64,000 bases of DNA from a virus (Duplodnaviria; Caudoviricetes): positions 9,367 through 73,366 of IMG/VR virus record IMGVR_UViG_3300031555_005762; one strand, written 5' to 3'. Under the pieces are notes generated by a model that saw only the letters and a list, made by a program, of their open reading frames with translations, was not told the origin of the DNA and ran no database searches. The position numbers and the translations under genes were made by a program. Positions 9,310-55,387 of this stretch are shown here, piece after piece; the first letter of the stretch is position 1; every line of letters begins with the position of its first letter.

Positions 9310-9503
9310 TTATGGGTATCTCCTTTCTCTTGGGTTTTGGATTTGCGGTTCTGCCATTTTCCTTTTAGATAGTCGATGATGTCGGTTTCTTCGTCGAGAA
9401 ACTGGTAAACAAAAACAAGACCGAAGAATATGGCTACAAGGGTGAAAACGACAATAAGGATAGACATACAAATGAGGAATGTATTCAGAAGGAATGACCA
9501 CAT
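9306..9503 (-). CDS. Small membrane protein
   Basis: 65 aa, N-terminal hydrophobic helix, GTGA overlap with next gene. Confidence 0.65.
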   Translation of the reverse strand: MWSFLLNTFLICMSILIVVFTLVAIFFGLVFVYQFLDEETDIIDYLKGKWQNRKSKTQEKGDTHK

Positions 9504-50822: not shown

Positions 50823-52478
50823 TTGACAAGCAGACCTTTATATACATATAAGTTCAAGTCTTCCAGATTGAAGGAAGCTAAATATGATCTGAATATATCT
50901 TTCAAGGAAGCAAAAAAGAGAAATGAAGTAATCTCGCTCGCTGATTCTCAGATTCTGCGAAGCATCCGGTACATACAGGGGCGAGAGATCGATTACGAGG
51001 AACTGGAACGGCTGATCTCCAGAAGAGATTATCTCCGGCGGCAGAAGGGTGCTCGAAGAGAGTATACTGAGTTACAGGAAACGCAGGATAAGATTAATGA
51101 TATGCTGATGGTTCCTGAATATGTGACGGTTTTTATAGAGGAAAGCTCACATTATGAGTATATTTTCAGAAACGGCATTCGCCTAAATGGAAAGACATAC
51201 AAACGCCTATCTTGTTCTGCCGGTCAGGCAAGAAACTCGACAGTGGTTCTATGTGATACTGAAATCATAGACAGGCTCAAAGAGATCTTAAACAATGGGC
51301 GTGATATGTCGAAGCCGCTGGCCCCCAGTAAGTTCAATGCATATTTTGGACTCGCTGGATCATCAACTCATATTGTGTCCGAACCAAAGTTTATTGTTAT
51401 CCGGGACTATGAAAACACAACGTCATTCATGGCGAACTATCTTACGGAAAATCCGGACTGGGACAGAGACGACACGCTGGATGTACGGATGATCGAAGAT
51501 ATGCCCATGAACCGCACGGACGGCATGGGATTGATTTCTCCGGAACTGTCCGAGAAATGGGCCAAGGAACTGGGTCTTGATTACATACCGGCGCAGTGGT
51601 GTATCCGTCAGTCCTTTATCAAAGGAATGGTTTGCACCTTCCCTATCCATCAGTTCTGCGAAGAAGTGGCTGGCGGGAATTATATGGTGGAAACGATCTA
51701 CAAAGACGAAGCCGGTAATCCGATTGTGGCTGACCTGCGGGATTACGATATGATTCTGACGGAGTCTCAGTTTAAGCTGTGGGACAGCTACCCTTCTCTG
51801 GATGTGTACATAGAAAATTATCATAAGAATCACCTGTACTGGGGCGTCAGCCAGTTTACACCGAAACAGGCCAAAGATACACTTACACTGAATTATCAGT
51901 TTATACAGACGCTTGATCTGGATGAGGAAGGTGTAAGAGAACTGTGCGGGCAGTTTGTTGACTGGATCAGCGGTGTGTCCTGTGACAATTATTCGTATAT
52001 GCTTCTTTATCTGATGGGTGTTGGAGACGACGAGGACAAGTTGCGAAACTGGATGCGAAGCAGCGACAACTGGTGGCTGAAGTCTCTGATGATGTGTCCA
52101 GACCTGATGAATGATAAGTACACACGGGCAAAAATCCGGGATCTGATACGGAACCGGATTCAGAACGGCTGCATGGGTGAGATTTGTGTAGATGGAAACT
52201 TCCAGGTGATGGTATCGGATCCGTATGGGTTTATGCAGCATGCCTGCGGTCTTCCGGTGACGGGGCTTCTGGGCAAGGACGAATTCTATTGCAGCTACTG
52301 GAATGAGCGTGGTGTTACGCAGGTGGATTCCATGCGATCGCCTCTTACATATCGCAGTGAGCACGTTATTGCGAATCTGGTGAAGAATGAAGAAACGGAG
52401 AAGTGGTATCGGTATTGTTATCTTGGGTTTATTCTGAATTATCATGGACATGATACAGTGATGTACGCCGGGTCGGAT
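50823..52478 (+). CDS. yonO: YonO-like single-subunit RNA polymerase, exon 1 (552 aa)
   Basis: YKRL..SAGQAR, DGMGLISP, QWCIRQ.F.KG, TESQFK, RSPL, ends ..YAGSD; full spliced product predicted at 925 aa. Confidence 0.85.
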
Positions 52479-53586
52479 CAATCGGGTTCTGCCTTATGGC
52501 ATAACATGGTGAACCAGCAGAGCTGGGTGTCTGCATACGCAGGCTAACGGGGGACAGCTACGGGCGCAAGCCTATGCCAATCCCGTGCGAAATTTGGTGT
52601 TATATCAGAGAATGGGAGGTTAATGGAATATAGAGAAATCCCTTTTTTAAGAGGGTATAAGATCAGTGAATACGGAGATGTTTTATCCAAACGGAATGGG
52701 AAACCATTAAGAATCTATGCAAAACCATTAGGTGACGATAGATGTTGTATCCGTGAAACGTATTATCTCATATCAGAGCTTGTTGCATCAACTTATCTTG
52801 GTGAAATGGATTTGGATGTTTATTGTGTATGTCATAAAGATGGAAATCAACATAATAACCATGTATCCAATCTTGAGTGGCATAAACGAAAGAAAGATTT
52901 GATATATAAACCTATACCAGGATATCCTAATTATGAGATATCTGAGCTGGGCGATGTATATAATCTTGTGTATCGAAAGCATATGGGAGCCCATCCCGAT
53001 CAGGACGGTTACTATAAAGTTCATATATCTAATAATGGTAAGACAGACACTTGGTTCGTACACCGTCTTGTAGCTCTTACATATTTAGAGAAGCCGGAAG
53101 GTTGCAATGTTGTAAATCATTTAGATTCTGATAGGAAGAACAATGATTACAGGAACTTGGAATGGACTACTGCTCAAGGGAATTATGAGCATGGTATGCT
53201 TTATGGTTATAATCAGCCGCAAGGTGAAAATAATCCTCGTAGTAAATTAACAGAAGATCAAGTAAAAGACATCCGTTATTTATTTTCGAATGGGTACCGT
53301 GTAGCTGATATCCAAAAGAAATATGATTTTGTACGTTGGGAAGAAATAAAGAATATTGTGACTTATAGAGCGTGGAAAAACGTAAACTGATCTAACACCA
53401 ATAAACGTGTAACGACTATCCCTTGGCTCCCCGGCTAATAAATGGAGCAATAGGAGTACGGCGGCCGCGAGGTCGTGGGTGAGAACCCCTTAAATGGAAG
53501 TGCCATGCCTCAACAATGTTGAGTGAAGATATAGTCTACTCCGTGGGTATGTACCCAGAAATATCCCGAAAGGGACGGTATAAAGG
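52479..53586 (+). mobile_element. Group I intron 1 (1108 nt) carrying an HNH gene
   Basis: U|exon end, terminal G; Q CAATCCCGTGC, R GTGTAACGACTA, S GAAGATATAGTC; intron AUCGG complementary to the 3' exon UCGAU (P10). Confidence 0.9.
52623..53390 (+). CDS. Intron-encoded tandem NUMOD4-HNH homing endonuclease
   Basis: Two NUMOD4-HNH units (CHKDGNQHNNHVSNLEW; NHLDSDRKNNDYRNLEW); GGGAGG RBS; AT-rich. Confidence 0.9.
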   Translation: MEYREIPFLRGYKISEYGDVLSKRNGKPLRIYAKPLGDDRCCIRETYYLISELVASTYLGEMDLDVYCVCHKDGNQHNNHVSNLEWHKRKKDLIYKPIPGYPNYEISELGDVYNLVYRKHMGAHPDQDGYYKVHISNNGKTDTWFVHRLVALTYLEKPEGCNVVNHLDSDRKNNDYRNLEWTTAQGNYEHGMLYGYNQPQGENNPRSKLTEDQVKDIRYLFSNGYRVADIQKKYDFVRWEEIKNIVTYRAWKNVN

Positions 53587-53592
53587 TTCGAT
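53587..53592 (+). CDS. yonO: RNA polymerase micro-exon 2 (TTCGAT = Phe-Asp)
   Basis: Lies between intron 1 terminal G and intron 2 start; restores GSD-FD-YD. Confidence 0.85.
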
Positions 53593-53929
53593 CAAATGGT
53601 CGCGCTGCGTAGCGATGCGCAGATGAAAATGTGGTGAACCTGTAAATACAGGGTGTCGCCGGGACGGTTAGGAACCGCAGGAAATGGCGGTTTATCCGGC
53701 GGCTGACAGGGGAGGCTGAATGAAGTATGCTAATCCTGTGGCAAGCGTGGAAACACGAAGCTCAAACGACTAACCCTTGGCCAGATGGCAATAGGTGTAC
53801 GGCCCCGGTGAAATTCCGGGGCGGGTGAAATTCCCTTAATTGGAAGTGCCACACACCTCTCAGAGGTGATGATATAGTCTAATCCCGATGGAAACATCAT
53901 GAAATACGGCGAAAGCCGGGGTTCAATTG
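53593..53929 (+). mobile_element. Group I intron 2 (337 nt, no ORF)
   Basis: IGS GUCG pairs CGAU; R AAACGACTA, S GATGATATAGTC; terminal G. Confidence 0.9.
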
Positions 53930-54226
53930 TATGATATAGTAGCCAGTACATCAAACAAAACCATGATTAACGGCGTATACCGGAATGAACTTCCTGTTGT
54001 ATACGATCCTCCTAAACCCAAGAAGATACTCTTTACTGATGAAGACCTGTATCGGGCAGACACATTCGGTTTCGGGTCTATTATCGGGAGTATTACCAAC
54101 AAGAGTTCTATTGCCTATTCCCTGCTCCCTCTCATTGAACGGGACTATGGGAAAGACAGTGAGGAATACAAGCTGACTGTGTCGAGATTACAGCAGTGCT
54201 GTGCGGCACAGTCGAGACAGATCGAT
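53930..54226 (+). CDS. yonO: RNA polymerase exon 3 (99 aa, YDIVASTSN...QSRQID)
   Basis: In-frame continuation completing DFDYD; IG.ITN and QID motifs. Confidence 0.85.
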
Positions 54227-54568
54227 AAAATTTTGTCGCTTTACGCAGCGATGCGTATCGAACAATGTGGTGAACCTGCAGATGCAGGGTGTCCGCTTTA
54301 CGTATAGGATCAACAGGAAATGGTTGATAAAAAGCGGGCTGACCGGGGAAACCGTAGCGGGTCGTGCCGTCGGCAATCCGGTGCTTGAAAACAAGTCCAA
54401 CGATCATCCCTTTGGCCGTGGAATTCGGCAACAGGAGTAGGGCTGTCAGGCATGGCAGCGGGTGAGAGTCCCTTAAATCGAAGCGCCACACAACTCTTTG
54501 AGTTGATGATATGATCTACACCCTGCCCCGTCCGGGGGCGAAATACCGGGAAACCGGGGGTATTCAGG
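54227..54568 (+). mobile_element. Group I intron 3 (342 nt, no ORF)
   Basis: Strong similarity to intron 2; compensatory P7 GAUCA/UGAUC; IGS UUUU-GUCG pairs both exons. Confidence 0.9.
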
Positions 54569-55387
54569 AAAACGAAGATCGGACAGGTTGTCAAGGGTAT
54601 TCCGAAGGTTTGGATTGAAAAGCAGGACGATGAGTTCTACAACCGGATCCTTCTGAATAAGTATCCGTACTTCTTTAAGTACCGGTACAAAGGTGCTCAT
54701 GATGACTACAAAAAATATGAGGAGGAATGCAACTCCGAATGCAAGTACAGATTCCGGATGCAGCTTGCGGATCTCCTGAGGATGGAGAAGTACACGCCGG
54801 ATCAGGAGGAATTCCTGAAGAACTACTATAAATATATGCCGGTGATTTACAGCGATTCGCCGATGAATCTTCTGTGCCGTCATATTGAGGGGATAGACTT
54901 CGGAATCCGGGAAAAGATCCGTGGGGACGGGAAATTTGATTATCATATACTGATCGACAAAGACCATCCTTACACGGAAGAAGAATATACTGCCGTTGTA
55001 AAGATTTTCGGAGAATACAACGTGATTGCCAAGGCTATGGCGATCCGCAAGGAGGGGGTTTCTCAGGACGATCCGGATTTCTGGGCATACAGCAGATACA
55101 GAGTGTTCTGCGAATCCTGTCTGGACGAAATGGCTGCCAGTCTTTGCGACATGATTCTGGTGACCAACTGTCTTGTCCGTTATTTCTACGAAGATAAACC
55201 GCGATCCAACAAGGAGCTCCTTTGGTCAGTTGCAGGTTCCTATCTTTATGGAAACGTCTGCAAAAATGTTGGGAAGCGAACAGTTTTTTATCCGTTTGTG
55301 GATCCGGATGGGGATATTACATATTTGAATAAGCGTTATACCATGCGGGAGGTGACACTCGATGATCCAGAATCGGTACAAGTATGA
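54569..55387 (+). CDS. yonO: RNA polymerase exon 4 (KTKIGQ...; 272 aa)
   Basis: Open frame from 54569 is in frame with the listed ORF 54758-55387; contains KYPYFFKY. Confidence 0.85.
   Translation, partial: KTKIGQVVKGIPKVWIEKQDDEFYNRILLNKYPYFFKYRYKGAHDDYKKYEEECNSECKYRFRMQLADLLRMEKYTPDQEEFLKNYYKYMPVIYSDSPMNLLCRHIEGIDFGIREKIRGDGKFDYHILIDKDHPYTEEEYTAVVKIFGEYNVIAKAMAIRKEGVSQDDPDFWAYSRYRVFCESCLDEMAASLCDMILVTNCLVRYFYEDKPRSNKELLWSVAGSYLYGNVCKNVGKRTVFYPFVDPDGDITYLNKRYTMREVTLDDPESVQV

Follow-up and report, generated by a model that had tools for sequence, protein, structure and literature searches.

Why does a phage RNA polymerase gene carry one of its three catalytic aspartates on an exon of only six bases? 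The question is raised by 64,000 nucleotides of DNA from a virus of the Caudoviricetes (Duplodnaviria; IMG/VR virus record IMGVR_UViG_3300031555_005762, positions 9,367 to 73,366), the whole of which we call the window. On its plus strand, at 50823-55387, lies a gut phage's own RNA polymerase gene, made up of four coding pieces and three introns. Between introns 1 and 2 stand the bases TTCGAT (53587-53592), and the claim of a six-base exon within 53581-53600, made in a first-pass annotation of this DNA, is confirmed by sequence comparison. We consider it very probable that this micro-exon is a by-product of two mobile introns occupying adjacent conserved sites and not a selected device. Coordinates below are those of the window, and a slash within a sequence marks a splice junction. 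The gene, including the introns and their open reading frames (ORFs), is laid out as follows:

50823-52478, plus strand: exon 1, 552 codons, defined by its ORF and translation, with the 3' end ..VMYAGSD carrying the first catalytic Asp
52479-53586, plus strand: group I intron 1, 1108 nucleotides, at site 1 after the first Asp codon, ending in G
53587-53592, plus strand: micro-exon TTCGAT, encoding Phe-Asp, whose Asp is the middle one of the DxDxD triad, with the omega-G of intron 1 just before it and the opening base of intron 2 just after
53593-53929, plus strand: group I intron 2, 337 nucleotides, no ORF, at site 2 after the second Asp codon, ending in G
53930-54226, plus strand: exon 3, 99 codons, translated as YDIVASTSNK...SRQID, starting TAT GAT with the third catalytic Asp
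54227-54568, plus strand: group I intron 3, 342 nucleotides, no ORF, at site 3 (QID/K), between invariant D628 and K629 in the numbering of protein P0013
54569-55387, plus strand: exon 4, 272 codons plus stop, translated as KTKIGQVVKG...

Exon 1 closes with ..ATG TAC GCC GGG TCG GAT at 52478, and the coding bases that next fit the protein family are TTCGAT at 53587-53592, followed by TAT GAT.. from 53930. In the three window introns and in all relatives examined, U is the last base of the 5' exon and G the last base of the intron, and because the bases flanking each junction differ, the boundaries are fixed and cannot slide. When 50823-52478, 53587-53592, 53930-54226, and 54569-55387 are joined, they form a frame of 2778 nucleotides that encodes 925 amino acids and has a single terminal stop; residues 1-925 align with residues 1-924 of P0007, an uninterrupted homolog of 924 amino acids, at 79% identity with one gap. 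Residues G525, D527, D529, and D531 of the motif G-[SA]-D-x-D-x-D are invariant in 31/31 full-length homologs aligned, and the DxDxD triad appears only once introns 1 and 2 are removed (GSD/FD/YD). The micro-exon thus supplies Phe-Asp, including the central Asp of an invariant triad, as had been claimed for it. The same six bases are plain exon sequence in relatives without one or both introns, and the closest uninterrupted homologs carry YAGSDFDYDIVASTSNK, which equals the splice prediction. The correct splice junction is predicted to read GGGTCGGATTTCGATTATGATATAG, with GGATTTCGATTATGAT expected within the spliced RNA, and half-spliced molecules would read GGGTCGGATTTCGATCAAATGG if intron 1 were removed first and AAAGGTTCGATTATGATATAG if intron 2 were removed first.

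Sequence matches identify the host gene as one for a YonO-like single-chain RNA polymerase. Exon 1 matches the Pfam family PF05183 (RdRP) at E 8e-12 and 45 bits, above the cutoff of 23.8, and the profile phrog_8308 at E 3e-117; exons 3 and 4 continue that profile after exon 1 in the same order, at positions 554-650 and 647-845. With P0013 as the tblastn query, the match of residues 2-527 ends at 52478, and residues 530-629 and 629-897 fall in exons 3 and 4. As a control, phrog_8308 also matches in B. subtilis. YonJ, YonG, and HU-like genes are neighbors in relatives with the same gene order, and the gene is single copy within the 73-kb IMG/VR record. YonO itself is the RNA polymerase of SPbeta, where it transcribes the late operon, and changing its three triad Asp residues to Asn abolishes catalysis while stable elongation complexes still form (PMC5467207). 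A profile search of solved structures returned no relative, and the catalytic role of the triad is therefore taken from the YonO work. YonO is a single-chain two-barrel enzyme (PMC5467207), and the two proteins have in common their family, the catalytic Asp triad, and SPbeta-like neighbors in relatives. They differ in that identity between them is about 26% (E 5e-21, tblastn), the motif here is DFDYD, and no intron is mentioned in PMC5467207. By analogy with SPbeta YonO, the window polymerase would be expected to synthesize RNA from DNA and to transcribe late genes.

What, then, are the interruptions? The helices that bear on this point are listed here:

52475-52489, plus strand: intron 1 P1 hairpin, GGAU/C (52475-52479) paired with GGUUC (52485-52489), loop AAUCG, with a U.G wobble at the splice site
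53589-53602, plus strand: intron 2 P1 hairpin, CGAU/C (53589-53593) paired with GGUCG (53598-53602), loop AAAU, -4.1 kcal/mol (RNAfold)
53630-53636, plus strand: 5' strand of intron 2 P3, UGUGGUG, partner at 53847-53853, seven pairs, 100% of alignment cells paired, four pairs with two-sided changes
53768-53772, plus strand: 5' strand of intron 2 P7, GACUA, partner UAGUC at 53875-53879, in a pseudoknot with P3, 100% of alignment cells paired

The fold was derived from alignment A2, which holds eight ORF-less introns from the three sites, window intron 3 among them, at a mean column identity of 62%. RNAalifold recovered P2, P3, P4, P6, P6a, P8, and the P9 hairpin from these eight introns, and P1 and the P7 pseudoknot were added to the structure manually. 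Its 57 pairs are paired in 96.2% of cells, compared with 35-42% when the partners are slid, and compensatory (two-sided) changes occur at 38/57 pairs; none of 500 shuffles reached the observed values. P1 alone is paired in 96.7% of cells, with an invariant U.G and compensatory changes at two of its five pairs, and P7 shows a compensatory swap in window intron 3 (GAUCA with UGAUC, compared with GACUA with UAGUC). The conserved core contains the P3/P7 pseudoknot, a P4-P6 domain, P8, and R/S-type elements (..ACGACUA and GAUAUAGUC), and introns 2 and 3 fit the covarying fold. The core of intron 1 is 76-87% identical to ORF-less site-1 introns at related loci L133 and L002, which fit the same fold, and its P1 hairpin (-2.8 kcal/mol by RNAfold) reappears in L133 intron 1 as GGAU/C with GGUCU, so that pairing is kept despite base changes. 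Intron 2 P1 is likewise conserved in L133. When annotated phages were searched by blastn, the only matches were short stretches of the core in introns of Vibrio, Staphylococcus, and Enterocloster phages. These features point to introns 1-3 as group I introns of one family, which would be expected to self-splice in vivo.

Some details of these ribozymes stand apart from that argument. Standard group I introns have just a 3-nucleotide junction between P3 and P4, and here two extra covarying hairpins lie in that position (53639-53703 in intron 2, columns 59-123 of A2), one a 5-bp stem CCUGU..ACAGG and the other a long stem GUCGCCGG..CCGGCGGC. In frame, intron 1 presents a TAA 23 codons past its 5' splice site, inside a conserved GCUAAC (52479-52547), and intron 2 presents a TGA 15 codons past its own, inside the invariant GGUGAAC of P3 (53593-53640). 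Early in-frame stops are thought to exclude ribosomes from bacterial intron cores. In intron 3, the L1 loop UUUU pairs in exact register with AAAA, the first bases of exon 4, as a textbook P10. Site 3 is also occupied in related loci L069, L073, L090, L133, and L187-L190, with an HNH ORF in L187.

Intron 1 owes most of its length to a gene of its own:

52623-53390, plus strand: HNH homing-endonuclease ORF, 255 amino acids, within intron 1, preceded by GGGAGG

This ORF matches Pfam HNH_3 (E 1.4e-11) and NUMOD4 (E 5.7e-9), along with phrog_959 and phrog_59 (HNH endonuclease; E 1e-50). It is placed in a peripheral loop closed by UUGGUGUUA..UAACACCAA, where the ORF-less L133 intron 1 has a short hairpin, and the combination of an HNH domain with a DNA-binding module in such a loop is what would be expected of an intron-borne HNH endonuclease. 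At locus L001, the orthologue of intron 1 has the same length (1108 nucleotides), carries an HNH gene, and uses the same 3' splice site.

The strongest evidence for the micro-exon is the pattern of intron occupancy in relatives, and there L001, L132, and L133/L134 confirm both of its boundaries independently. Neither site is occupied in 76/91 loci first surveyed, which are mostly IMG/VR records. Site 1 alone is filled in L001, L002, and L187-L189, and the 3' junction when only intron 1 is present reads ..AGG/TTCGATTACGAT, or ..TATATAGG/TTCGATTACGATATT in L001. Site 2 alone is filled in L003-L005, L132, L135, L190, and the cultured Enterocloster phage CB457P1, whose junctions read NGSDFD/TAATTG.. 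and ..AAAG/GGAGAT; L132, which reads GCGGATTTCGAT/CAAAGTGGTCGCG with an intron starting CAAAG.., belongs to the same lineage as L133 and lacks intron 1. Both sites are filled in the window and in L133/L134, a second lineage with exons 63-70% identical to those of the window and the layout GCGGAT/317-nucleotide intron/TTCGAT/337-nucleotide intron/TACGAT. Among the best 120 protein matches, 18 clusters end just after the first Asp, as intron read-through would produce, and 11 end just after the second. Because every combination of occupancy is seen in relatives, we take introns 1 and 2 to be separate mobile units, and because four states exist and the sites are often singly filled, chance co-occupancy fits better than a selected device.

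The window is part of a virus record that was derived from a metagenome and has an estimated completeness of 43%, and the adjacent introns could in principle be an assembly artifact or chimera, with no such neighbors in any real genome. We judge this extremely unlikely. L133 and L134 are independent assemblies from two samples (ENA ERZ28436053 and Logan ERR3393567), and they show the same architecture in the other lineage. A further sample, SRR29277929, contains an identical intron 2 and 3' junction, and the protein clusters that match exon 1 with read-through and exon 3 have 23 and 20 members.

That further sample also speaks to movement. In its locus, L193, 230/230 bases of intron 2 and the 3' junction are identical to the window, while exon 3 is 94.3% identical, and intron 2 shows 89.6% identity between the window and L133; since the intron is more conserved than the exons, and identical where the exons differ, recent horizontal spread of intron 2 fits these data. 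No clear co-conversion tract was found between the window and L133 exons, which are 68-75% identical near the junctions and 66-71% identical further out. As a separate matter, introns 2 and 3 both follow TCGAT and share 5' sequence, and we considered intron 2 as a recent copy of intron 3; the two are 72.4% identical, compared with 68-72% for unrelated pairs in the family, and the idea was rejected.

Taken this way, sequence comparison shows where the introns begin and end, how the ribozymes fold, that the two elements are independent, and what frame their removal restores, and it leads us to the following account. Two mobile group I introns, independent of each other but members of one family, would have invaded G-S-D-F-D-Y-D, the gene's most conserved, metal-binding stretch, intron 1 with its HNH endonuclease after the first GAT and ORF-less intron 2 after the second, with intron 3 after the GAT of QID/K. 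A preference of group I introns for conserved sites has been described (PMC2814812). The two sites are two codons apart, and a 6-nucleotide exon is therefore what remains when both are filled. A short local P1 hairpin would let each ribozyme find its 5' splice site, and the entire 5'-exon recognition of intron 2 would fit inside the micro-exon. An active enzyme would require exact excision of both introns, in any order. The endonuclease would drive homing, and ORF-less intron 2 may move by co-conversion or reverse splicing.

Could intron 1, the micro-exon, and intron 2 instead leave the RNA as one unit, as a tandem "zombie" twintron in a gene that is functionally dead here? Composite tandem group I modules have been described in fungal mitochondria (PMC12308204), the intron 2 guide can cross-pair with the first 5' splice site, and exon 1 of L133 contains in-frame TAG codons. 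Yet the six bases encode exactly the F-D needed for the invariant motif, the window exons are free of internal stops and share 79% identity with an intact homolog, and only one such polymerase gene is present in the record. In a twintron of this kind the bases between the modules should be neither coding nor required; here they are both, and each module also occurs alone at the same boundary. We therefore hold excision as one unit to be very unlikely.

The TAG codons deserve a closer look. They fall in frame at codons 18, 131, and 216 of exon 1 in L133 and L134 (L133:3314-4972 and L134:541-2199), with no other stops. Exon 1 of L132 (L132:787-2457) has TAG at the first two of these positions and CAG (Gln) at codon 216, and the TAG-bearing frames are otherwise well conserved. 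No tRNA genes were found on the short L132-L134 contigs. Recoding of TAG as Gln is described for some gut phages, and the pattern suggests that TAG is read as Gln in the L132-L134 lineage, with early gene decay as the alternative.

How two ribozymes work across so few shared bases is a separate question. Four of the six micro-exon bases are the 5'-exon recognition site of intron 2, because its local P1 hairpin pairs there; the proposed pairing of CGAU with GUCG was borne out in the form listed above. For intron 1, a P10 pairing over the same bases had been put forward:

52481-52485, plus strand: candidate intron 1 P10 strand AUCGG, partner UCGAU at 53588-53592

This duplex can form (-3.1 kcal/mol in the window and -4.5 after removal of intron 2), but it leaves U53587 unpaired and lies one base off the usual register. 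An AUC/GAU-type P10 pairing is kept in L001, L002, L187, and L189 and lost in L133 (AAAAC, +0.5) and L188, and intron 2 has essentially no P10; because of these losses and this near absence, P10 looks dispensable in the intron family. The annotation had further held that the P10 and P1 pairings are mutually exclusive and that splicing must be ordered. Mutual exclusion stands, in that the two cannot exist at one moment, but either order yields the same mRNA. With P10 also off register and lost in the second lineage, an obligatory order does not follow.

Skipping of the micro-exon had also been put forward, as a source of full-length but dead GSD-YD polymerase that could serve as a timing device or rheostat for late gene expression. 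In the regulated form of this proposal, a set share of transcripts would carry exon 1 joined to exon 3, and the product, able to bind DNA but not to catalyze, would delay or tune late transcription. We find this improbable, and equally so the fuller scheme in which the intron 1 ribozyme uses the 3' splice site of intron 2, or the intron 2 guide acts on the first 5' splice site, and a share of GSD-YD that shifts during infection sets the timing or level of late transcription as a ribozyme-based dominant-negative switch. Skipping does keep the frame, as had been predicted, and its product would be a protein of 923 amino acids (..YAGSDYDIVAS..) with the junction GGGTCGGATTATGATATAG. The YonO triple Asp-to-Asn mutant, inactive yet complex forming, and the transcription of the late operon by YonO (PMC5467207) lend the scheme a biochemical parallel. 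GAU is also the end of every 5' exon in the gene, and the intron 2 guide pairs with each of the three (-3.2, -4.1, and -3.2 kcal/mol at 5' splice sites 1, 2, and 3), so that cross-reactions are chemically conceivable. The precedent of exon skipping by tandem phage group I introns in Twort holds up as cited in PMC3073962, and PMC11878797 adds SIOphi as another. Cognate P1 pairings, however, are local hairpins with 4-5-nucleotide loops, whereas cross-pairing would span 320-1100 nucleotides. The arrangement is dispensable for this type of phage, since near relatives lack one intron or both; the second lineage does not preserve the suggested P10 competition; and co-occupancy is about as rare as independent insertion predicts, at ~15% x 9% of clusters. 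Some unregulated skipping is more likely than regulated skipping.

Several points count against the view of the micro-exon as a by-product of two mobile, self-splicing introns, and they should be weighed together. The permissive Rfam search gave intron 2 a match to RF00028 over the full model length at 35.8 bits (E 1.8e-6), short of the gathering score of 50 bits, and at the gathering threshold Rfam found no match in the whole window. Window intron 3 had no Rfam match at E<=0.01. The three introns of L133 are full-length RF00028 matches as well, at 21.7-27.7 bits, also below the gathering score. The low score of intron 2 probably arises because cmscan puts P4 onto one of the extra hairpins. 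Double occupancy was found in just two lineages, and if the L133/L134 gene is in early decay, that copy would say less about whether the arrangement allows function. By the modeled energies, the first 5' splice site is almost as good a partner for the intron 2 guide as the cognate one, and mis-splicing is conceivable. Finally, we infer splicing, its accuracy, and its order from DNA. Attempts to widen the sample bear on the second of these points: scans of IMG/VR, JGI metagenomes, and GTDB genomes with the patterns ACGGTANANAGGTTYGAY and GGTTYGAYCAAAN{0,1}TGGTCGCG for further double-intron loci gave nothing beyond chance hits to unrelated genes and taxa, and a search of genome contigs for related loci with the single protein P0013 found none.

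Multi-intron phage genes and mitochondrial mini-exons were known already, and the arrangement described here is real and, for a phage, rare. One close parallel is Twort orf142, which holds three related group I introns in one gene and shows exon skipping (Landthaler and Shub 1999, as cited in PMC3073962 and PMC11878797). By those accounts, Twort resembles the window in having several paralogous group I introns per gene, similar 5' exon ends, guides that can cross-pair, and skipping that is possible in principle; it differs in that the gene encodes a structural protein there and a phage RNA polymerase here, and in that skipping is reported for Twort and would be hypothetical here. In the SIOphi study, the skipped form made up ~47% of one gene's transcripts (PMC11878797). 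That study describes phage genes interrupted by two or three group I introns, one small exon that came to light only in cDNA reads, and a skipped internal exon as a major product. Those genes encode DNA polymerase, terminase, and ribonucleotide reductase in other phage families, whereas the window has a six-base exon with a catalytic residue.

Mitochondrial genes offer another comparison. Very short exons, with fewer than about four codons, are said to be a regular feature between self-splicing introns there and are spotted by conserved residues absent from gene models (PMC10352661). Such mini-exons, like the tandem modules of PMC12308204, belong to organellar genes helped by maturases and host factors; here the gene belongs to a phage, and in its bacterial host translation and transcription are coupled. 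In phage PhiPA3, a group I intron carrying the HNH endonuclease gp210 sits in the gene for an RNA polymerase beta subunit, and the nuclease harms a competitor (PMC11620839). The likeness to intron 1 lies in an HNH intron immediately after conserved Asp residues of a phage RNA polymerase, with a possible benefit from cutting the intron-less allele of competitors; PhiPA3 differs in being a jumbo phage with a multisubunit polymerase, a single intron, and no micro-exon (PMC11620839). A limited literature search, which is weak evidence on such a point, returned no report of introns in YonO-like polymerase genes or of a 6-nucleotide phage exon.

At this locus self-splicing introns have targeted the best-conserved part of an essential gene to an extreme degree: the three catalytic Asp residues of a viral RNA polymerase lie on three different exons, one of them just two codons long. 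It indicates that group I exon recognition can fit in four to five bases and that two ribozyme cores of ~300 nucleotides are apparently workable six bases apart in a bacterial setting, where transcription and translation are coupled. The four natural occupancy states make a ready experimental system for interference between neighboring ribozymes and for skipping, and the site-2 intron is available in cultured Enterocloster phages. In gene calls and GenBank records such polymerase genes are broken up into several "hypothetical proteins," and a two-codon exon would be missed by any standard pipeline.

Annotated phage genomes hold further cases of this kind. Among cultured Enterocloster bolteae phages, an unannotated site-2 group I intron lies in the yonO-like gene of locus L191 (OP172753.1, Enterocloster phage CB457P1; 1745-2310) and of OP172757.1, and CB473P3 also carries the site-2 intron. 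The annotation of these phages gives the gene as several "hypothetical proteins." OP172755.1 belongs with them but seems to be interrupted elsewhere, as its match breaks near residue 595. In Clostridium phage c-st (AP008983.1, 164535-167467) and in MT835481.1 (510-4175), the yonO-like match comes in two pieces with surplus DNA, which may hold an intron.

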